From positions 59,275-123,274 of the forward strand of contig CAXRCZ010000007.1 of assembly GCA_964229335.1 (NCBI GenBank): DNA of 64,000 bases, given 5' to 3'. The notes below the pieces were generated by a model, which saw only the letters and a program-made list of their open reading frames with translations, made no database searches and was not told the DNA's origin. The DNA comes from Minisyncoccia bacterium (GTDB lineage Bacteria; Patescibacteriota; Minisyncoccia; Phycocordibacterales; UBA918). Made by a program: the position numbers and the translations under genes. This document shows, piece after piece, positions 1-24,277 of the stretch (position 1 is its first letter; each line of letters opens with the position of its first letter).

Positions 1-988
1 GGTCACCGGGAGTAGGGGTGAAAATATCACCCGACTCGCAGTTGTGTCCTACCACAATGTATTCTTTAGTTTCATCATCATTATTTATCACCTCGATTTT
101 ATGTTGAGCGCCGTACATAGCTGTACGCAAAAAATCATTCATACCAGTATTGATTCGCAGAAAAGTGAAGCCGTCGGCTCCAGTATCGACAATATCGTCG
201 ACAGTTGCTACCAAGGTGCCGGCATGCGCAATCAGGTACGTACCAGGTTCAATTTCAAGCCGTAACTCTCTGCCAGTTTCAGCTGCAAAGTTCTCTAACT
301 TGCTAGAAAAGAGCTCCATTATTACCGACATATCAGCCTCTTTCTCAGTATCATATCGATGCACTTTGAAACCACCTCCGATATCGAGCGCGATGACATC
401 GGGTAATTGCGTGGCAATCGAAAGCGACCGATCCATCACCTCTCCCCACACTTTGGGATCTGAACCTGACCCAACATGGATATGTAGGCGATCAATGATC
501 ACATCATTTTCTTTGGCTAGTGCTAGAGCTTCGGGAATATATTCGTACCAAAGTCCAAACGCTGAGGTTGCTCCCCCGGTACTGGTGCGCTTGTTATGCC
601 CCACCCCCATATCAATATTAATCCGTATCCCAACAGTATCAGGATGATTGGCGGCGGCAATAAAATCTCTCAGTTGTCGCATCGAGGTGGCCACATAGAG
701 CACTCCTTGCTCAAGTAATTCAGCAAGATTAGGAGTTGACTGCTGTGAAGATAGCGAAATCTTATTACCCTCGATACCCATTTCTAATAACTCATCTGCT
801 TCATAACTTGAACTGGCATCAAACTCAACACCTGCAGTATCAATGAGTTTTATTATTTCTGGATGTGGATTGGCTTTAACGGCGTAGCGAGTCGTCAAGC
901 CAAATGGAGCTTCTAGACTAGTTAGTTCTTGTAGTCGTCGCTGTATTATTAATCGACTGTATTCGTAACGCGGAAGTGCTGTAGACAT
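1..988 (-). CDS. PLP-dependent group IV decarboxylase (Orn/DAP/Arg decarboxylase family); mirrored copy of 7181-8311, C-terminus cut by the window start
   Basis: ATG at 986-988 (reverse strand). Sequence is identical to the first 988 nt of 7181-8311. Confidence 0.8.
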   Translation of the reverse strand, partial: MSTALPRYEYSRLIIQRRLQELTSLEAPFGLTTRYAVKANPHPEIIKLIDTAGVEFDASSSYEADELLEMGIEGNKISLSSQQSTPNLAELLEQGVLYVATSMRQLRDFIAAANHPDTVGIRINIDMGVGHNKRTSTGGATSAFGLWYEYIPEALALAKENDVIIDRLHIHVGSGSDPKVWGEVMDRSLSIATQLPDVIALDIGGGFKVHRYDTEKEADMSVIMELFSSKLENFAAETGRELRLEIEPGTYLIAHAGTLVATVDDIVDTGADGFTFLRINTGMNDFLRTAMYGAQHKIEVINNDDETKEYIVVGHNCESGDIFTPTPGD

Positions 989-1014
989 TACTCGTAAATT
1001 ATCAAACTTAAATA

Positions 1015-1587
1015 TTAGACACGAATAAACTCGTCAACTTCTGGGAGCGGCATAATTTCTTTACCATTCTTTACCTTACCTTCCTCAAACGGAAATACAC
1101 TTATACTTCCATCTAATTCTAGATAGGCATATTCGACCTCTCCAATATTTCTCACTCCATTCTTTCTTAGTTCGGATTCTAGTTCAGCTTCAGTAAAGTT
1201 TTCAGTTTCCAACGCATGCTGAATTATTTGCCCATTTTTTACTAACAAATTTGGCCTACTATTAATAAATTTTTCGAAAGGTGACCACTTGAGTTTTAAT
1301 CTCGAAGTACCAAACTGCAACGTAATCACTGTCATAATAATTAGTGCTGCATAAATTATTGCTACAGATGGATAAAACATTACATCTCCCACCGCTGAAC
1401 CGAGCGCTACAATTAGTAACATCTCAACTGGAGTCATTTGTTTACGCGCTTTTTTTCCTCCTGCTCTCAGAAACACTAAGGCAAAGATATAAATAACCAG
1501 AACTCTAAAAGTAATTTCTAACAAGAATACCCATTCACTTTCACCAAAAATTGTTTGTGTTAGATCAAATGTAACTACCGGATCCAT
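1015..1587 (-). CDS. DUF421 (YetF-like) membrane protein
   Basis: 190-aa ORF with N-terminal TM helices and a C-terminal soluble domain typical of DUF421. Twin of 6582-7154. Confidence 0.7.
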   Translation of the reverse strand: MDPVVTFDLTQTIFGESEWVFLLEITFRVLVIYIFALVFLRAGGKKARKQMTPVEMLLIVALGSAVGDVMFYPSVAIIYAALIIMTVITLQFGTSRLKLKWSPFEKFINSRPNLLVKNGQIIQHALETENFTEAELESELRKNGVRNIGEVEYAYLELDGSISVFPFEEGKVKNGKEIMPLPEVDEFIRV

Positions 1588-1629
1588 GAAATTTTCTAAT
1601 TAATACGTGTAACGATTACTACAATATGT

Positions 1630-2238
1630 ATGTATAGTATCTTATTTTTCTTTTTTTCGCTTACGATAGCTGCGTCTGGTTTTTTAAAATGGTATGGTTT
1701 CTTAATGGATTGGATCTATCAGTCATATTCAGATGTGCCACAAATACTGTTCTCAGTAATAGTATTTACTTCGATAGTAGTACTTTATACAAGAATCGTT
1801 GGTCTTCGAAGTTTTTCTAAAATGTCTAGCTTTGATTTTGCCATCACAGTAGCGTTTGGTTCTATACTAGCTTCTGTGGTAATCGCAAAAGAACCTAAGA
1901 TATTCCAAGCTGCAGTAGCTATGGGTGGTTTATATTTGTTTCAATACGTACTGTCATTTATAAAAGTGAGGAATAAATGGTTTGCTACCTTGATTGATAA
2001 TGAACCGATTTTACTAATGAATAATCAAGGTTTTTTAGAAGACAATTTAAAAAAAGCCCGAGTTACTAAAGATGAAGTCAGAGATAAACTACGCAAAGCT
2101 AACGTGCTTCAACTCTCAGAAGTAAGGGCTGTAGTTTTTGAAACTACTGGTGATATTTCTGTATTACACAGTACATCCGACAGAAAAATAGATAGTGAAA
2201 TTACAGCCAACGTAAGAGATAAACATTTAATTCAATAA
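1630..2238 (+). CDS. DUF421 (YetF-like) membrane protein, paralog
   Basis: 202-aa ORF with the same architecture. Twin of 5931-6539. Confidence 0.7.
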   Translation: MYSILFFFFSLTIAASGFLKWYGFLMDWIYQSYSDVPQILFSVIVFTSIVVLYTRIVGLRSFSKMSSFDFAITVAFGSILASVVIAKEPKIFQAAVAMGGLYLFQYVLSFIKVRNKWFATLIDNEPILLMNNQGFLEDNLKKARVTKDEVRDKLRKANVLQLSEVRAVVFETTGDISVLHSTSDRKIDSEITANVRDKHLIQ

Positions 2239-2272
2239 CTAGCCGTCTGGGACAATGTTGGAACTTTTTTAG

Positions 2273-2800
2273 CTAAGAAATCGGCTTAATTTCTACTCCA
2301 CTATCTTTATACTCCCGGTATTCTTCCTTGGTTTCTCTCGAATCTACTGACTTACAATAAAACACTTCGTCACCAAAAGAAGACGGTACATCCCACAGCT
2401 TATGTTTAATAACAGCTCCCCACATCCACTTAGAGAGAACGATGTCATCAGATTTCATTATTCCCCCATGAGTAATATTTTCTCCTCCGTCTTTATAGAA
2501 CACCAGATCTCCAGGTTCTGGATTATTTGTTGCTACAAGAATATTCTTACTAAATAGATGTTTTATAAATTCTTGCTGTACAGGATTGTTTCCTCCAAGG
2601 AACTCTGGATCTTGCTCAAGTCCAAAAGCGAATACGAAACAATTATAGTTTATTAAGTATGCTGGTGGTGGGGCTACTATTGTTAACTCCAAAGGAAGAC
2701 GAGATCGAATATATGCTTCAAATTCATCCGGTACCCACCACTTTCTTCCTTCTTCCTCTTCAATTAGTTCTGTGAGTTCCTCTCTGTCTTTTTTGTTCAT
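2273..2800 (-). CDS. Hypothetical protein, possible papain-like Cys/His hydrolase
   Basis: 175-aa ORF with NCFVFAFG and ITHGG motifs. Twin of 5369-5896. Function not recognised. Confidence 0.55.
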   Translation of the reverse strand: MNKKDREELTELIEEEEGRKWWVPDEFEAYIRSRLPLELTIVAPPPAYLINYNCFVFAFGLEQDPEFLGGNNPVQQEFIKHLFSKNILVATNNPEPGDLVFYKDGGENITHGGIMKSDDIVLSKWMWGAVIKHKLWDVPSSFGDEVFYCKSVDSRETKEEYREYKDSGVEIKPIS

Positions 2801-3101
2801 ATGAAGAGTATACCTTGATCAAGAAGTCGAACTAAATATAGCTGAAATATCGGTGCTAGCCGTCTGGGACAATGTTGGAACTTTTCTGGGGTTATGATAA
2901 CTTACTCACAGGAGGACACCATGCACGAACAATCAAGCTCTTACGCAATGTGTTAACAGATTCTCAACCATCCTCGGTTCAAGGACTCGGACGCTCATGA
3001 GCGTTCATCTCTCTACAATAAATTGTCAGGGATGACATTTTCTGAACTCGCTGAAGAGCGAAAGAAAATTGGTCTACTGACTTATGAAGATTAATTTGCG
3101 T

Positions 3102-3129
3102 CACCTCTTTAACAGGAGGTGGCTTTTTT
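3102..3129 (+). terminator. Rho-independent terminator-like hairpin (mirror copy at 5040-5067 on the minus strand)
   Basis: Stem cacctc / gaggtg with an 8-nt loop, followed by gctttttt. Confidence 0.5.
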
Positions 3130-3161
3130 ACGAGCTACCGGACAGGGACGATGTTGGAACT

Positions 3162-3641
3162 TTATTGGCCAGCCGCTTCTAGAGCAGCAAGTGCATATCG
3201 TTGAGTTTCTGGTCGCATTCTCTCATCTTTTTCTAACAAATCATCTAGGTCTACTCTGGTGCACCATCTGTATTCTGTATCCATACTGTCTTCTTCTTGT
3301 GGATTGATTTCTCTAGAATCAGACCGTGCTGCAAATACTAAAGAGGAGTGGTCGTGTACCTCGTTTATTTTATGACGATTCATAAACAATGGTGGGACAA
3401 GGTCTTTATTTGTTTCAGTATCTGTTTGAGTCCAATTTTTAGGACCAATCAAAGTAACTTTTAGACCTGATTCTTCCCAAGCTTCTCGTACCGCAGCTTC
3501 GTTTGCATCTTCGCCGGGATCAATATGCCCTCCTGGCGTACCCCAATAGTTGTACTTTTCATGCAACCTCAGTAGTACAGCATCTCCATTTACTATGAAG
3601 GTATCTACGCAGAGGTCTAGGTAGTAATTTATATGTGCCAT
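3162..3641 (-). CDS. NUDIX hydrolase
   Basis: Nudix box GGHIDPGEDANEAAVREAWEESGL. Twin of 4528-5007. Confidence 0.85.
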   Translation of the reverse strand: MAHINYYLDLCVDTFIVNGDAVLLRLHEKYNYWGTPGGHIDPGEDANEAAVREAWEESGLKVTLIGPKNWTQTDTETNKDLVPPLFMNRHKINEVHDHSSLVFAARSDSREINPQEEDSMDTEYRWCTRVDLDDLLEKDERMRPETQRYALAALEAAGQ

Positions 3642-3833
3642 ACATGAAAGTATAGCAAATTACTGGACAGGGACTCGGTCAGGAGTCGATTATTTTCATG
3701 AATGAAAATATATCGCTCACGACCCTGGCTCGAAACTCCAGTCCCCCAGACTGGTTTTCTCCGCCTTTCTCGTCCCAGTGCTCGGTATCCATAACGATAA
3801 ATTGCGATAGCAAATGCTATCGCAGTTTAATCG

Positions 3834-3907
3834 TGGCTACCGGACAGGGACTCGAACCCCGATCGCTTGGACCAAAACCAAGTGTCCTACCATTAGACGA
3901 TCCGGTA
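3834..3907 (-). tRNA. tRNA-Gln(TTG), mirror copy
   Basis: Exact reverse complement of 4262-4335. Confidence 0.9.
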
Positions 3908-4261
3908 AAATATTTCATTACCAACGATTTACTAACGGGAGGACGCGCAGTGTCCATACTGTCGAGCTAAGTGAGGGTCTAAAGAAAATATGTTTTCTTT
4001 AGACCGAACGTGCGCTGACAGCAAGCTTTGCTTACCATTAGACGATCCGGTAATTTTGTAAAATATAGGTACGTACTTTGGTACGTACCAAAGTACGTAC
4101 CTATATTTTACAAAATTACCGGATCGTCTAATGGTAAGCAAAGCTTGCTGTCAGCGCACGTTCGGTCTAAAGAAAACATATTTTCTTTAGACCCTCACTT
4201 AGCTCGACAGTATGGACACTGCGCGTCCTCCCGTTAGTAAATCGTTGGTAATGAAATATTT

Positions 4262-4335
4262 TACCGGATCGTCTAATGGTAGGACACTTGGTTTTGGTCC
4301 AAGCGATCGGGGTTCGAGTCCCTGTCCGGTAGCCA
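4262..4335 (+). tRNA. tRNA-Gln(TTG) with encoded CCA
   Basis: Acceptor taccgga/tccggta (U1-A72). Anticodon arm cttgg-ttTTGgt-ccaag. T arm cgggg-ttcgagt-ccctg. Discriminator g followed by cca. Confidence 0.9.
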
Positions 4336-4491
4336 CGATTAAACTGCGATAGCATTTGCTATCGCAATTTATCGTTATGGATACCGAGCACTGGGACGAG
4401 AAAGGCGGAGAAAACCAGTCTGGGGGACTGGAGTTTCGAGCCAGGGTCGTGAGCGATATATTTTCATTCATGAAAATAATCGACTCCTGAC

Positions 4492-4508
4492 CGAGTCCCT
4501 GTCCAGTA
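4492..4508 (+). repeat. R1: near-exact copy of the tRNA-Gln 3' end (mirror at 3661-3677)
   Basis: cgagtccctgtccAgta matches tRNA positions 4315-4331 cgagtccctgtccGgta at 16/17, 177 nt downstream. Confidence 0.85.
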
Positions 4509-4527
4509 ATTTGCTATACTTTCATGT

Positions 4528-5007
4528 ATGGCACATATAAATTACTACCTAGACCTCTGCGTAGATACCTTCATAGTAAATGGAGATGCTGTACTACTGA
4601 GGTTGCATGAAAAGTACAACTATTGGGGTACGCCAGGAGGGCATATTGATCCCGGCGAAGATGCAAACGAAGCTGCGGTACGAGAAGCTTGGGAAGAATC
4701 AGGTCTAAAAGTTACTTTGATTGGTCCTAAAAATTGGACTCAAACAGATACTGAAACAAATAAAGACCTTGTCCCACCATTGTTTATGAATCGTCATAAA
4801 ATAAACGAGGTACACGACCACTCCTCTTTAGTATTTGCAGCACGGTCTGATTCTAGAGAAATCAATCCACAAGAAGAAGACAGTATGGATACAGAATACA
4901 GATGGTGCACCAGAGTAGACCTAGATGATTTGTTAGAAAAAGATGAGAGAATGCGACCAGAAACTCAACGATATGCACTTGCTGCTCTAGAAGCGGCTGG
5001 CCAATAA
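4528..5007 (+). CDS. NUDIX hydrolase
   Basis: 159-aa ORF with a Nudix box. Confidence 0.85.
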   Translation: MAHINYYLDLCVDTFIVNGDAVLLRLHEKYNYWGTPGGHIDPGEDANEAAVREAWEESGLKVTLIGPKNWTQTDTETNKDLVPPLFMNRHKINEVHDHSSLVFAARSDSREINPQEEDSMDTEYRWCTRVDLDDLLEKDERMRPETQRYALAALEAAGQ

Positions 5008-5035
5008 AGTTCCAACATCGTCCCTGTCCGGTAGC
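5007..5035 (+). repeat. R2: att-like repeat aaagttccaacatcgtccctgtccggtagc (mirror at 3134-3162)
   Basis: The last 15 nt, tccctgtccggtagc, are identical to the tRNA-Gln 3' end. The first 14 nt are shared with R3 and R4. Confidence 0.85.
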
Positions 5036-5284
5036 TCGTAAAAAAGCCACCTCCTGTTAAAGAGGTGACGCAAATTAATCTTCATAAGTCAGTAGACCAA
5101 TTTTCTTTCGCTCTTCAGCGAGTTCAGAAAATGTCATCCCTGACAATTTATTGTAGAGAGATGAACGCTCATGAGCGTCCGAGTCCTTGAACCGAGGATG
5201 GTTGAGAATCTGTTAACACATTGCGTAAGAGCTTGATTGTTCGTGCATGGTGTCCTCCTGTGAGTAAGTTATCATAACCCCAGA

Positions 5285-5314
5285 AAAGTTCCAACATTGT
5301 CCCAGACGGCTAGC
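5285..5314 (+). repeat. R3: att-like repeat aaagttccaacattgtcccagacggctagc (mirror at 2855-2884)
   Basis: Direct repeat of R4, and shares 11/15 of its 3' part with R2. Confidence 0.85.
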
Positions 5315-5368
5315 ACCGATATTTCAGCTATATTTAGTTCGACTTCTTGATCAAGGTATACTCTTCAT

Positions 5369-5896
5369 ATGAACAAAAAAGACAGAGAGGAACTCACAGA
5401 ACTAATTGAAGAGGAAGAAGGAAGAAAGTGGTGGGTACCGGATGAATTTGAAGCATATATTCGATCTCGTCTTCCTTTGGAGTTAACAATAGTAGCCCCA
5501 CCACCAGCATACTTAATAAACTATAATTGTTTCGTATTCGCTTTTGGACTTGAGCAAGATCCAGAGTTCCTTGGAGGAAACAATCCTGTACAGCAAGAAT
5601 TTATAAAACATCTATTTAGTAAGAATATTCTTGTAGCAACAAATAATCCAGAACCTGGAGATCTGGTGTTCTATAAAGACGGAGGAGAAAATATTACTCA
5701 TGGGGGAATAATGAAATCTGATGACATCGTTCTCTCTAAGTGGATGTGGGGAGCTGTTATTAAACATAAGCTGTGGGATGTACCGTCTTCTTTTGGTGAC
5801 GAAGTGTTTTATTGTAAGTCAGTAGATTCGAGAGAAACCAAGGAAGAATACCGGGAGTATAAAGATAGTGGAGTAGAAATTAAGCCGATTTCTTAG
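5369..5896 (+). CDS. Hypothetical protein, possible papain-like Cys/His hydrolase
   Basis: 175-aa ORF flanked by R3 and R4. Confidence 0.55.
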   Translation: MNKKDREELTELIEEEEGRKWWVPDEFEAYIRSRLPLELTIVAPPPAYLINYNCFVFAFGLEQDPEFLGGNNPVQQEFIKHLFSKNILVATNNPEPGDLVFYKDGGENITHGGIMKSDDIVLSKWMWGAVIKHKLWDVPSSFGDEVFYCKSVDSRETKEEYREYKDSGVEIKPIS

Positions 5897-5901
5897 CTAA
5901 A

Positions 5902-5930
5902 AAAGTTCCAACATTGTCCCAGACGGCTAG
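5902..5930 (+). repeat. R4: att-like repeat aaagttccaacattgtcccagacggctag (mirror at 2239-2267)
   Basis: Identical to R3 over 29 nt. Confidence 0.85.
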
Positions 5931-6539
5931 TTATTGAATTAAATGTTTATCTCTTACGTTGGCTGTAATTTCACTATCTATTTTTCTGTCGGATGTACTG
6001 TGTAATACAGAAATATCACCAGTAGTTTCAAAAACTACAGCCCTTACTTCTGAGAGTTGAAGCACGTTAGCTTTGCGTAGTTTATCTCTGACTTCATCTT
6101 TAGTAACTCGGGCTTTTTTTAAATTGTCTTCTAAAAAACCTTGATTATTCATTAGTAAAATCGGTTCATTATCAATCAAGGTAGCAAACCATTTATTCCT
6201 CACTTTTATAAATGACAGTACGTATTGAAACAAATATAAACCACCCATAGCTACTGCAGCTTGGAATATCTTAGGTTCTTTTGCGATTACCACAGAAGCT
6301 AGTATAGAACCAAACGCTACTGTGATGGCAAAATCAAAGCTAGACATTTTAGAAAAACTTCGAAGACCAACGATTCTTGTATAAAGTACTACTATCGAAG
6401 TAAATACTATTACTGAGAACAGTATTTGTGGCACATCTGAATATGACTGATAGATCCAATCCATTAAGAAACCATACCATTTTAAAAAACCAGACGCAGC
6501 TATCGTAAGCGAAAAAAAGAAAAATAAGATACTATACAT
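5931..6539 (-). CDS. DUF421 (YetF-like) membrane protein
   Basis: 202-aa ORF. Confidence 0.7.
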   Translation of the reverse strand: MYSILFFFFSLTIAASGFLKWYGFLMDWIYQSYSDVPQILFSVIVFTSIVVLYTRIVGLRSFSKMSSFDFAITVAFGSILASVVIAKEPKIFQAAVAMGGLYLFQYVLSFIKVRNKWFATLIDNEPILLMNNQGFLEDNLKKARVTKDEVRDKLRKANVLQLSEVRAVVFETTGDISVLHSTSDRKIDSEITANVRDKHLIQ

Positions 6540-6581
6540 ACATATTGTAGTAATCGTTACACGTATTAATTAGAAAATTTC

Positions 6582-7154
6582 ATGGATCCGGTAGTTACAT
6601 TTGATCTAACACAAACAATTTTTGGTGAAAGTGAATGGGTATTCTTGTTAGAAATTACTTTTAGAGTTCTGGTTATTTATATCTTTGCCTTAGTGTTTCT
6701 GAGAGCAGGAGGAAAAAAAGCGCGTAAACAAATGACTCCAGTTGAGATGTTACTAATTGTAGCGCTCGGTTCAGCGGTGGGAGATGTAATGTTTTATCCA
6801 TCTGTAGCAATAATTTATGCAGCACTAATTATTATGACAGTGATTACGTTGCAGTTTGGTACTTCGAGATTAAAACTCAAGTGGTCACCTTTCGAAAAAT
6901 TTATTAATAGTAGGCCAAATTTGTTAGTAAAAAATGGGCAAATAATTCAGCATGCGTTGGAAACTGAAAACTTTACTGAAGCTGAACTAGAATCCGAACT
7001 AAGAAAGAATGGAGTGAGAAATATTGGAGAGGTCGAATATGCCTATCTAGAATTAGATGGAAGTATAAGTGTATTTCCGTTTGAGGAAGGTAAGGTAAAG
7101 AATGGTAAAGAAATTATGCCGCTCCCAGAAGTTGACGAGTTTATTCGTGTCTAA
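6582..7154 (+). CDS. DUF421 (YetF-like) membrane protein
   Basis: 190-aa ORF. Confidence 0.7.
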   Translation: MDPVVTFDLTQTIFGESEWVFLLEITFRVLVIYIFALVFLRAGGKKARKQMTPVEMLLIVALGSAVGDVMFYPSVAIIYAALIIMTVITLQFGTSRLKLKWSPFEKFINSRPNLLVKNGQIIQHALETENFTEAELESELRKNGVRNIGEVEYAYLELDGSISVFPFEEGKVKNGKEIMPLPEVDEFIRV

Positions 7155-7180
7155 TATTTAAGTTTGATAATTTACGAGTA

Positions 7181-8311
7181 ATGTCTACAGCACTTCCGCG
7201 TTACGAATACAGTCGATTAATAATACAGCGACGACTACAAGAACTAACTAGTCTAGAAGCTCCATTTGGCTTGACGACTCGCTACGCCGTTAAAGCCAAT
7301 CCACATCCAGAAATAATAAAACTCATTGATACTGCAGGTGTTGAGTTTGATGCCAGTTCAAGTTATGAAGCAGATGAGTTATTAGAAATGGGTATCGAGG
7401 GTAATAAGATTTCGCTATCTTCACAGCAGTCAACTCCTAATCTTGCTGAATTACTTGAGCAAGGAGTGCTCTATGTGGCCACCTCGATGCGACAACTGAG
7501 AGATTTTATTGCCGCCGCCAATCATCCTGATACTGTTGGGATACGGATTAATATTGATATGGGGGTGGGGCATAACAAGCGCACCAGTACCGGGGGAGCA
7601 ACCTCAGCGTTTGGACTTTGGTACGAATATATTCCCGAAGCTCTAGCACTAGCCAAAGAAAATGATGTGATCATTGATCGCCTACATATCCATGTTGGGT
7701 CAGGTTCAGATCCCAAAGTGTGGGGAGAGGTGATGGATCGGTCGCTTTCGATTGCCACGCAATTACCCGATGTCATCGCGCTCGATATCGGAGGTGGTTT
7801 CAAAGTGCATCGATATGATACTGAGAAAGAGGCTGATATGTCGGTAATAATGGAGCTCTTTTCTAGCAAGTTAGAGAACTTTGCAGCTGAAACTGGCAGA
7901 GAGTTACGGCTTGAAATTGAACCTGGTACGTACCTGATTGCGCATGCCGGCACCTTGGTAGCAACTGTCGACGATATTGTCGATACTGGAGCCGACGGCT
8001 TCACTTTTCTGCGAATCAATACTGGTATGAATGATTTTTTGCGTACAGCTATGTACGGCGCTCAACATAAAATCGAGGTGATAAATAATGATGATGAAAC
8101 TAAAGAATACATTGTGGTAGGACACAACTGCGAGTCGGGTGATATTTTCACCCCTACTCCCGGTGACCCAGAAGAAATCGAACCGAGAATGTTAAATAAA
8201 GCAGAGATTGGCGACGAGATACGTATTTATGATGTTGGTGCGTATGGCGCAAGTATGCGAGCCAAGGGCTACAACTCGTTTCCAGACGCTGTTGAGGTGA
8301 TAGTCGATTAG
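7181..8311 (+). CDS. PLP-dependent group IV decarboxylase (LysA / Orn / Arg / carboxynorspermidine decarboxylase family)
   Basis: Motifs YAVKANP (PLP lysine), HIHVGSGS, DIGGGF, EPGTYL, GHNCESGD, GAYGASM. Confidence 0.8.
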   Translation: MSTALPRYEYSRLIIQRRLQELTSLEAPFGLTTRYAVKANPHPEIIKLIDTAGVEFDASSSYEADELLEMGIEGNKISLSSQQSTPNLAELLEQGVLYVATSMRQLRDFIAAANHPDTVGIRINIDMGVGHNKRTSTGGATSAFGLWYEYIPEALALAKENDVIIDRLHIHVGSGSDPKVWGEVMDRSLSIATQLPDVIALDIGGGFKVHRYDTEKEADMSVIMELFSSKLENFAAETGRELRLEIEPGTYLIAHAGTLVATVDDIVDTGADGFTFLRINTGMNDFLRTAMYGAQHKIEVINNDDETKEYIVVGHNCESGDIFTPTPGDPEEIEPRMLNKAEIGDEIRIYDVGAYGASMRAKGYNSFPDAVEVIVD

Positions 8312-23819: not shown

Positions 23820-24277
23820 GTCACGAGTTACTAAGTATATTTGTTCGTGATGCTCAAAATATTGCTTAGGGACATTGACTCGTCCTGGCGGTCACAAGGC
23901 TGAATTGAGTATCAAGATACTCAATTCAGCAAGTGCCGCGGGACACGCCTCGCTCGTTTTCAGCTCCAGGTAATGAGCTGAAAACATCGTTCCGGCGTTC
24001 GAGTCTGCACGCAAGCAAAGCAGTTTGCTTGCTCCCTGAGCAGTCAAAACCCCGCCAAGGGCGGGGTTTCTTTGTGCAGATGCACGGGACAATTCTCGAA
24101 CTTTTGATCTGAGAGTCCTTCACTCTATCAAGCAACTCGAACCACTCCAAAACGCAAACGACGACTCTGTTGAGCCGCCGATTGCTGATGTCGCGTAAGA
24201 GCGACTCTCTCAGCGCGACCGTACATAAAAACCCTCGATGCACGAATGCATCGAGGGTCTGCGGTAGCTAGCAATAG

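Follow-up and report, generated by a model that had tools for sequence, protein, structure and literature searches.

A probable integron-like gene-cassette array at the 3' end of tRNA-Gln in Patescibacteria

Here we describe a tRNA-Gln gene and the array of short, repeat-bounded gene cassettes that follows it in a 64-kb stretch of DNA from a Minisyncoccia bacterium (64,000 nucleotides of contig CAXRCZ010000007.1, referred to below as the window), together with a 33-nt motif that bounds comparable cassettes on at least 120 metagenome contigs. Comparison of these contigs showed that units are gained, lost and exchanged as blocks with breakpoints inside or at the end of the site, and that the array takes the 3' end of tRNA-Gln as its first site. 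We consider it probable that the locus exemplifies an integron-like type of cassette array that is Patescibacteria-wide, is built on the tRNA-Gln 3' end and a site derived from it, and is served by a recombinase encoded elsewhere. Such a cassette system is widespread in Patescibacteria and apparently undescribed.

Data and scope

The DNA examined was the 64-kb window, and the comparisons were drawn from metagenome contigs, whose loci are numbered from L001 onward. A motif pattern covering the variants seen in the window and in locus L007 was run on metagenomes and returned at least 120 contigs, which make up the motif loci L077-L196; counts given for motif loci (instances, units, tRNAs and flanks) are among the matches listed on these contigs. 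The window is most closely related to metagenome-assembled genomes (MAGs) of Patescibacteria that carry the labels Saccharibacteria or Paceibacteria, LysA identities being at most 66%. The window otherwise encodes ordinary bacterial housekeeping genes.

Four repeats behind tRNA-Gln

The original prediction, made from the letters of the window, placed four repeats (R1 to R4) downstream of tRNA-Gln and read them as att-like boundaries of single-gene units. All four were recovered where they had been placed (Table 1), as was the match of R1 to the tRNA 3' end at 16 of 17 positions. The last 16 nt of R2, GTCCCTGTCCGGTAGC, are identical to tRNA positions 4318-4333 (16/16), one nucleotide more than the 15 first claimed, and they are joined to a left half of different origin, TAAAGTTCCAACATC, so that R2 is a hybrid site. 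Directly 3' of R2 come the trailer TCGTAAAAAA and a hairpin. Similarly, the identity of R3 and R4 held and was found to extend over 30 nt rather than 29 (5284-5313 against 5901-5930). The forward genes do end at the repeats, as predicted: the stop codon of the NUDIX hydrolase gene (5005-5007) overlaps the start of R2, and that of the gene for a 175-amino-acid (175-aa) protein (5894-5896) lies 4 nt before R4.

One rival to be considered at this locus, that the repeats are alike by chance, belong to a generic intergenic repeat or stem from faulty assembly, can be dealt with at once. It draws some encouragement from the one gross fold-back that the window holds (see below) and from four viral matches to a looser motif pattern that turned out to be coincidences. 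The left half shared by R2-R4, AAAGTTCCAACATYGTCCC, occurs in three exact copies on the forward strand and three in the mirrored copy of the locus, with no other exact copy in the 64 kb. When up to three mismatches are allowed, the window holds seven matches against 0.06 expected, far beyond chance; six of the seven, including all of the exact ones, sit at the tRNA-Gln locus, and the remaining one is a three-mismatch match at 24086-24104. Furthermore, contig L001 from the Logan assembly of SRR28144605, an independent short-read assembly, equals the window base for base from 4447 onward, R1-R4 included, so the repeats are not an artefact of assembly. With the same grammar and the same tRNA recurring on at least 120 metagenome contigs, we regard this explanation as already refuted.

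A conserved 33-nt motif

The 209 non-identical motif instances among the matches listed give the consensus A-N-AAAAGTTCCAAC-N-TCGT(C/A)CCA-N-AC-N-GCCAGC, which can also be written A-N-AAAAGTTCCAAC-N-TCGTCCCA-N-AC-N-GCCAGC, as a 33-bp derivative of the tRNA-Gln 3' end. Across these instances the information content is high from position -1 to position 31 and there is none in the flanks. The host contigs range from 29 to 57% in guanine plus cytosine (GC) content, and the near-invariance of almost every position over such a range fits recognition of the sequence by a protein. R3 and R4 had been taken as local copies resembling the tRNA 3' end, a view that has to be given up: both share with the consensus three fixed differences from the tRNA-Gln 3' end as well as the non-tRNA left half, and are better described as copies of a phylum-wide motif. 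The reverse complement of the motif was also considered as a degenerate tRNA 5' half or a promoter, and this was dropped for lack of consistent support.

The layout is well illustrated by L007, a Paceibacteria MAG whose LysA is 65% identical to that of the window. There, tRNA-Gln is followed by an unrelated 118-aa open reading frame (ORF), the motif copy AAAAGTTCCAACTTCGTACCATACGGCCAGC (26 of 31 positions as in R3), a 125-nt unit, a degenerate motif copy, a DsbB-like gene (assigned by eye from its CxxC motif) and lysA. The cassette genes thus placed differ from those in the window.

tRNA-Gln as the first site, and exchange of units at the site

Among the matches listed, a tRNA-Gln gene (UUG or CUG) lies directly upstream of the motif array in 31 distinct loci, always in the same orientation; it is the only tRNA found there, and no motif copy occurs upstream of it in these 31 loci. 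This link to tRNA-Gln, together with the absence of scattered left halves in the 64 kb, disposes of a generic dispersed repeat. Where at least 5 kb of upstream sequence is available, tRNA-Gln was found in 10 of 14 loci. The other four show that orphan arrays exist; one locus, L191, has a co-oriented tRNA-Ser 2.8 kb upstream in place of tRNA-Gln.

Nor is the locus invariant, since unit content differs among relatives, even inside a single metagenome. L112 and L175, both from metagenome Ga0075163, agree at every base of the motif and of at least the 70 nt preceding it, and show no relationship from the first base after it; what follows in L175 is a unit homologous to one in L101. The converse arrangement is seen in L083/L139, L083/L187 and L145/L157/L164, in which the upstream sequences are unrelated and the contigs are 96-99% identical from the motif onward. 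The motifs of L083 and L187 differ at positions 9 and 12 and agree from position 13 onward, so the breakpoint falls within the site.

The same units may follow either the tRNA or the motif. Those found after the tRNA in L095, L133 and L135 follow the motif in L082, L192/L103 and L091, respectively, the alignments starting at nucleotide 1 or 5 past ...CAGC. L157 and L145 form one more pair, which is offset by 5 nt and aligned from about nucleotide 40 on. As the same units follow either one in register, a unit can have the tRNA 3' end or the motif as its left boundary, and the two are interchangeable in this role. Hybrid sites, in which a motif left half meets a tRNA right half at GTCCC, occur as R2 in the window and as the first copy in L085. 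The motif copy common to L145, L157 and L164 carries the acceptor 3' strand of the local tRNA, and in L157 this copy has a T-stem different from that of the tRNA. More generally, in 52 of 56 copies motif position 28 has the nucleotide found at base 71 of the tRNA at that locus (T with T in 9 of 9), counts that are not phylogenetically independent.

These data bear on a second explanation, in which the repeats are the scars of islands or prophages, each bearing its own integrase, that integrated serially at a tRNA-Gln attB and decayed to one gene apiece, the repeats being leftover attR sites. R1 and R2 are indeed copies of the tRNA 3' end, and 5' and 3' tRNA fragments flank the gene in many loci. 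A TCG(T/A)A-A-run-hairpin trailer like that of R2 directly follows the tRNA in L133, L126 and L157, so that R2, with its tRNA-type trailer, looks like the displaced original end of the tRNA, as this explanation would have it. Tandem accretion of units split by partial tRNAs has been reported for the tycheposons of Prochlorococcus (bioRxiv 10.1101/2020.12.28.424599). Nonetheless, R3, R4 and most copies elsewhere differ from the local tRNA end and carry a left half that is conserved across the phylum and is not of tRNA origin. The units, with a median of about 500 nt, are intact, expressed-looking single genes rather than pseudogene debris, no integrase remnants were found in the approximately 120 loci, and independent decay would not leave a sharply bounded, identical motif across genomes of 29-57% GC. 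We therefore judge island scars to be quite improbable. The original prediction had offered serial integration and an integron-like array as alternatives; att-like boundaries of single-gene units are supported, and the integron-like option is the one that fits better. An R2-type layout would also arise if a circle carrying the motif left half, GTCCC and the tRNA right half, in that order, were to recombine with the tRNA.

Array grammar and cassette content

Motif copies within a locus were always co-oriented, with one to eight per stretch examined, among the matches listed. The 128 non-identical units measure about 500 nt at the median. Three of them lack an ORF, and in the others the largest one reads forward (91 units) or in reverse (34 units); 73% of cassette ORFs are thus sense to the motif and 27% of units antisense. 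Stop codons of the forward ORFs cluster at the motif, half of them lying between -5 and +12 nt of it. The cassette proteins are diverse, nearly all of 89 being singletons. By Pfam assignment NUDIX is the commonest family (7 of 91 cassette proteins), and HIT, peptidase S51, SET, peptide deformylase, GH25, isochorismatase, GNAT and HAD proteins are found among others; the 25 most frequent cassette families include no recombinase.

Of 70 forward cassettes, 24 have a TATA(A/C)T hexamer, which is separated from the start codon by 6-7 nt in 21 of them. The two window genes conform, and neither has a Shine-Dalgarno sequence. This spacing suggests that cassettes carry internal promoters giving rise to leaderless mRNAs. 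In addition, a forward terminator-like hairpin stands directly 3' of the tRNA (window 4345-4366). Since many cassettes have a promoter of their own and the tRNA is followed by such a hairpin, co-transcription is not required.

GC skew is positive on the strand that carries the tRNA-Gln gene and its array in 28 of 30 loci when measured upstream and in 24 of 27 when measured downstream, and the positive skew on both sides indicates that the arrays are co-oriented with replication. A hypothesis in which the motif marks a dif site or the replication terminus was rejected: of the 11 loci in which both flanks are long, 9 have skew of one sign across the array, with no switch.

Search for a recombinase

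Every ORF of 80 aa or more from the window and from the metagenome motif loci (L077-L196) was searched with phmmer, using Escherichia coli XerD and the gamma-delta resolvase as queries, and with hmmsearch, using a hidden Markov model built from XerD and a protein of L078. With these queries neither program found a tyrosine or serine recombinase in the 64-kb window, in agreement with the original prediction that none is present there. A Xer-like gene was found only in L078/L097, two near-identical contigs of one genome, where it lies 2.7 kb away from the array beside lexA and a sigma factor gene. A Pfam census of 129 flanking proteins likewise revealed no recurrent recombinase, the 25 most frequent families all being housekeeping.

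The lack of a linked enzyme is among the evidence for the main rival, in which the motif is a conserved RNA or transcription signal at gene ends, acting in 3' processing, stability or termination as a mimic of the tRNA 3' end, and the units are shuffled by RecA following uptake of DNA by competence, with no dedicated recombinase. Besides the approximately 120 arrays that lack a linked recombinase, this explanation can call on the 73% of cassette ORFs that are sense to the motif, on stop codons that often abut or overlap it, on the co-orientation of the array with the tRNA and with replication, and on the resemblance of the motif to the tRNA 3' end. The tRNA 3' end is recognised in RNA by RNase Z, RNase P and the CCA-adding enzyme. 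However, the 27% of units that are antisense, and those with no ORF, keep the same boundary, and reverse-oriented and non-coding units that do so argue against a purely mRNA-level role. The motif alone cannot form a tRNA-like helix, and the flanks of the 209 instances hold no conserved partner sequence with which it might form one. The hairpin after the tRNA, the promoters carried by many cassettes and the near-invariance of the motif across genomes of 29-57% GC, which fits recognition by a protein, count against an RNA signal as well. Blocks of identity of 31 bp are poor substrates for RecA-driven double crossovers. Competence itself is documented, in that one report (PMC10187176) describes Saccharibacteria as naturally competent, and this favours shuffling by homologous recombination. 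On balance we consider the RNA-signal explanation unlikely.

A model for the array

In the integron-like reading that we prefer, each unit would be a short self-contained module, usually one small gene, often with its own leaderless promoter, and in some cases a structured non-coding element. A site for recombination would close each module, a copied tRNA-Gln 3' end (T-loop to ...CAGC) in some and the 33-bp derivative of that end in others. Exchange would proceed by site-specific recombination, with the crossover in the central TCGTCCC region that the motif shares with the tRNA, and the recombinase would act in trans, from elsewhere in the genome or from a helper element. The array would then constitute a stockpile of accessory genes, of the integron or accretion-island type, beside a strongly expressed gene that is co-oriented with replication.

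Several observations weigh against this model. Apart from L078/L097, neither phmmer nor hmmsearch linked a recombinase to any of the approximately 120 arrays. No dyad symmetry between the motif arms was seen on inspection of the consensus, unlike the situation in dif, attC and res. The strict motif pattern matched 0 viral contigs, and when the consensus was compared by BLAST with 50,697 phage and 72,556 plasmid records, the only matches were partial ones of 17-23 nt, attributable to chance. No locus contig has terminal overlaps of the kind expected of circular cassettes. The arrays are flanked by housekeeping genes (for example dnaX and ftsEX, and pyrG in L007); about a third of arrays with long upstream sequence have no tRNA-Gln; and homologues of the 175-aa protein often lie in ordinary operons without the motif. 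Finally, all of the comparative evidence comes from metagenome contigs, in which chimeric assembly at a 31-nt repeat could mimic some of the swaps. Chimeric assembly is nevertheless insufficient as an explanation, because it accounts neither for conservation of the motif across species nor for the in-register equivalence of tRNA and motif.

A looser form of the pattern matched four viral contigs (L197-L200) over 25 nt, corresponding to the left two-thirds of the motif, and these were read as coding coincidences. The match in L197 lies inside a DNA-methyltransferase-like ORF in GC-rich DNA; L198-L200 were checked for tRNAs and motif copies only, and no tRNA was found near any of the four matches.

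A bolder form of the model, which we put forward tentatively as a possibility, is that Patescibacteria possess a hitherto unrecognised gene-capture platform in which the tRNA-Gln 3' end and its 33-bp derivative are the attachment sites for single-gene cassettes circulating across the phylum, the enzyme being unlinked to the arrays and maybe of a new kind. The suggestion of a new kind of enzyme comes from the asymmetric, tRNA-like site and from the structured tRNA-mimic elements found in the same arrays.

Non-coding units and tRNA fragments

The original prediction recognised a non-coding unit of 160 nt behind the tRNA. The unit is indeed non-coding, occupies 4336-4508, and is more than that, being a member of a conserved family, here called type B, with a sister family, type A. 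Type B homologues follow tRNA-Gln in L108, L138 (two copies) and L174, and the 3' module of the family follows tRNA-Asp in L007. Type A gave 31 hits in 26 loci, and an alignment of 18 sequences contains compensatory changes in 15 of 24 predicted pairs; it also occurs after tRNA-Ser (L201) and tRNA-Asp (L007), with ends matched to those tRNAs. Besides the window unit, examples of the two types are L095 709-873, L201 7741-7910 and L007 2396-2600. By eye, both types look like the upper half of the adjacent tRNA, its T-loop interrupted by an insertion of 70-110 nt, the parts running in the order inverted acceptor 3' strand, T-stem 5' strand, insertion, and T-loop-to-3'-end fragment. Units of these types occupy cassette positions within arrays too (L092, L138). 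A search of Rfam 15 with window positions 4085-6000 and six related loci recovered only tRNA at meaningful scores, with no match for the motif or the non-coding units. The type A and B units may represent a tRNA-like RNA of a new kind; alternatively, they may be a mobile element with T-loops as its target.

Fragments of the tRNA 5' end are found as well, an exact 16-nt fragment of tRNA-Gln lying 85-159 nt upstream of the gene in eight loci, the window included. In L190 and L193, a complete tRNA-Gln is nested in the hairpin of an interrupted outer tRNA-Gln copy. In L157 (7470-7545), and also in L126, L133 and L155, an inverted copy of the tRNA-Gln 3' end is located about 40 nt downstream, across the terminator hairpin; it would lengthen that hairpin to about 70 nt and so sequester the acceptor 3' strand in read-through RNA.

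The reverse unit, the 175-aa protein and other features of the window

The unit between R2 and R3 is carried on the reverse strand, where AGGAGG precedes the 11-aa ORF MHEQSSSYAMC and the 20-aa ORF reads MTFSELAEERKKIGLLTYED. A unit between two motif copies in L007 (9112-9237) has a reverse-strand terminator likewise. The window unit could encode a small peptide or a small RNA.

The 175-aa protein gives a weak match to DUF7689, and may be NlpC/P60-like, with a faint match to the endopeptidase of PDB entry 4xcm (E = 0.15). Its family comprises at least 83 clusters in varied contexts, and the few clusters with a named source all come from candidate-phyla MAGs. A 65%-identical homologue (L201 8001-8528; L201/L202) is encoded just downstream of tRNA-Ser(GGA) and a type A unit, and in L209 a homologue lies between two NUDIX genes with no motif. 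The notion that homologues always reside in motif arrays was rejected, the motif being absent from the 11 loci L201-L211, which hold three of them. PADLOC, which was used to look for a defence role of the window cassette genes, returned only a weak NUDIX match.

Within 8169-64000 of the window, 3 of 46 larger ORFs matched T4SS_pilin (PF18895).

Table 1. Positions of the array components and adjoining features in the 64-kb window
Feature	Position	Strand	Remarks
tRNA-Gln(UUG), CCA encoded	4262-4335	+	59 bits; anchor and left boundary of the array
R1, tRNA 3' fragment	4492-4508	+	T-loop to CAGTAA
R2, hybrid site	5005-5035	+	31-mer; motif left half and 16 nt of tRNA 3' end
R3, complete 33-nt motif copy	5282-5314	+	2 mismatches to the 31-nt consensus
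R4, final motif copy	5899-5931	+	array end; last base overlaps stop codon of convergent DUF421 gene
NUDIX hydrolase, cassette gene 1	4528-5007	+	159 aa; Pfam PF00293, E = 1e-17
Conserved Cys/His protein, cassette gene 2	5369-5896	+	175 aa; Pfam PF24738, E = 2e-5
TATACT, -10-like hexamer	4515-4520	+	7 nt 5' of NUDIX ATG
TATACT, -10-like hexamer	5357-5362	+	6 nt 5' of ATG of the 175-aa gene
Type B non-coding unit	4336-4508	+	hairpin 4345-4366; core GACGAGAAAG ... GGGTCGTGAG ... GACCGAGTCCC; ends in R1
Small reverse unit	5036-5283	-	intrinsic terminator 5069-5046 (-); ORFs of 20 and 11 aa
21-nt copy of tRNA-Gln 5' end (acceptor and D-arm)	4116-4136	+	100% identical to 4261-4281; 145 nt upstream of the gene
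Hairpin-rich conserved spacer	4137-4261	+	homologues in L126 (78% over 118 nt), L101 and L108
DUF421/YetF genes	5931-6539 and 6582-7154	- and +	flank the array end
lysA-like ORF	7181-8311		beyond the array
Palindrome left arm	1-4084	.	carries the mirrored tRNA and repeats; truncated by the window start

The mirrored copy of the locus

The original prediction noted that the array is mirrored at 2239-3907. The reverse complement is there; it is not a second array, and forms part of a perfect palindrome, without a spacer, that spans 1-8168. Window positions 1-4084 are the exact reverse complement of 4085-8168, with arms of 4084 nt that are 100% complementary and separated by 0 nt. The centre at 4084/4085 reads GGTAC|GTACC, with another GGTACGTAC 8 nt off, and the right arm stops midway through the lysA-like gene. 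Elsewhere, ordinary genes stand upstream of tRNA-Gln, such as ftsX and pyrG in L007, and the upstream flank in L133 resembles, by eye, the end of pyrG. We conclude that the palindrome is very probably a fold-back chimera rather than a true inverted duplication. The source contig has an even number of nucleotides (126,716), so that the whole of it could be a palindrome. Whether the palindrome is real or an artefact, the mirrored array is the same array read twice and does not count as independent evidence. The apparent change of GC-skew sign at 4085 can similarly be ascribed to the palindrome alone, as the sign is constant across arrays elsewhere. With respect to the true sequence upstream of the tRNA, look-ups of two ORFs spanning 4028-4471 gave no match, and L001 starts at 4447.

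Significance

Patescibacteria make up a large share of bacterial diversity, with genomes of about 1 Mb and few recognisable mobile elements. A conserved 33-bp site that bounds swappable single-gene modules behind one tRNA gene offers a direct test of how they acquire accessory genes. With the motif, cassettes can be retrieved from metagenomes, by polymerase chain reaction or in silico, and a Patescibacteria 'cassette metagenome' can be defined; the recombinase, too, can be fished for with it. For genetics in the Saccharibacteria, which are cultivable and naturally competent, the motif could provide a neutral insertion site. We found no description of such arrays or of the motif sequence in the literature, where our coverage was incomplete, so the novelty is provisional; a 2025 survey of gene transfer in 125 Patescibacteria genomes makes no mention of tRNAs, integrases or cassettes (PMC12455944).

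Comparison with known systems

In leader-proximal integration by casposons and CRISPR systems, a tRNA gene or leader is a polar insertion point and one repeat is gained per insertion. A polar array of repeats and inserts behind a tRNA gene is common to those systems and the arrays described here. The inserts here are genes, however, and the repeats do not reproduce the tRNA end exactly, as target-site duplications would. Cas1 and casposase are absent from the 25 most frequent flanking Pfam families, although no search aimed at either was made.

With the modules that depend on Xer and dif, namely the integrative mobile elements exploiting Xer (IMEX) and the pdif modules of Acinetobacter, our arrays share small modules, sites of about 28-33 bp and, on the model above, a recombinase that is not encoded by the module. 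They differ in that dif is a 28-bp site with partly symmetric arms around a 6-bp centre, whereas the present motif has no dyad. The chromosomal dif lies at the terminus, and the arrays do not, GC skew being positive on both sides in 9 of 11 loci. In addition, pdif sites alternate in orientation, whereas the sites here are all direct.

Accretion islands anchored at tRNA genes, such as the tycheposons, are likewise fixed at a tRNA 3' end, with units split by partial tRNA copies, older ones being pushed outward, and in such islands units without an integrase can persist between att sites. Integrase-less elements that are mobilised in cis beside integrative and conjugative elements persist in the same way, flanked by att sites. 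Those islands consist of multi-kb elements, in contrast to the single genes of about 0.5 kb seen here, and the separator in our arrays is a distinct motif conserved across many species of the phylum rather than a copy of the local tRNA. No integrase was found in the approximately 120 loci here.

The closest parallels are with integrons and the clusters of attC sites lacking integron-integrases (CALINs), which also take the form of a co-oriented array of mostly single-ORF cassettes of a few hundred bp, each with its site at the 3' end and a stop codon abutting it, and with diverse, mostly orphan genes exchanged as blocks at the site. As in integrons, a fixed primary site starts the array, the tRNA-Gln 3' end taking the position of attI. 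The differences are considerable and touch the defining features of a true integron. No intI-type gene adjoins the arrays, and the Xer-like gene of L078/L097 is the only tyrosine recombinase that phmmer, hmmsearch or Pfam found next to any of them. The attC site is an imperfect palindrome of 50-150 bp with R''/L''/L'/R' boxes, in place of which we find a conserved 33-bp site that is not palindromic and derives from a tRNA 3' end, in a different host group, the Patescibacteria. Integron cassettes are mostly promoterless and rely on the common promoter Pc, whereas about one third of the forward cassettes here have a leaderless -10 of their own. The arrays would exemplify an integron-like architecture with its evolutionary origin in a tRNA attachment site. 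If the bolder form of the model is correct, they would represent a second, independently evolved form of the 'integron' principle and a major route for genes to move between ultra-small bacteria.

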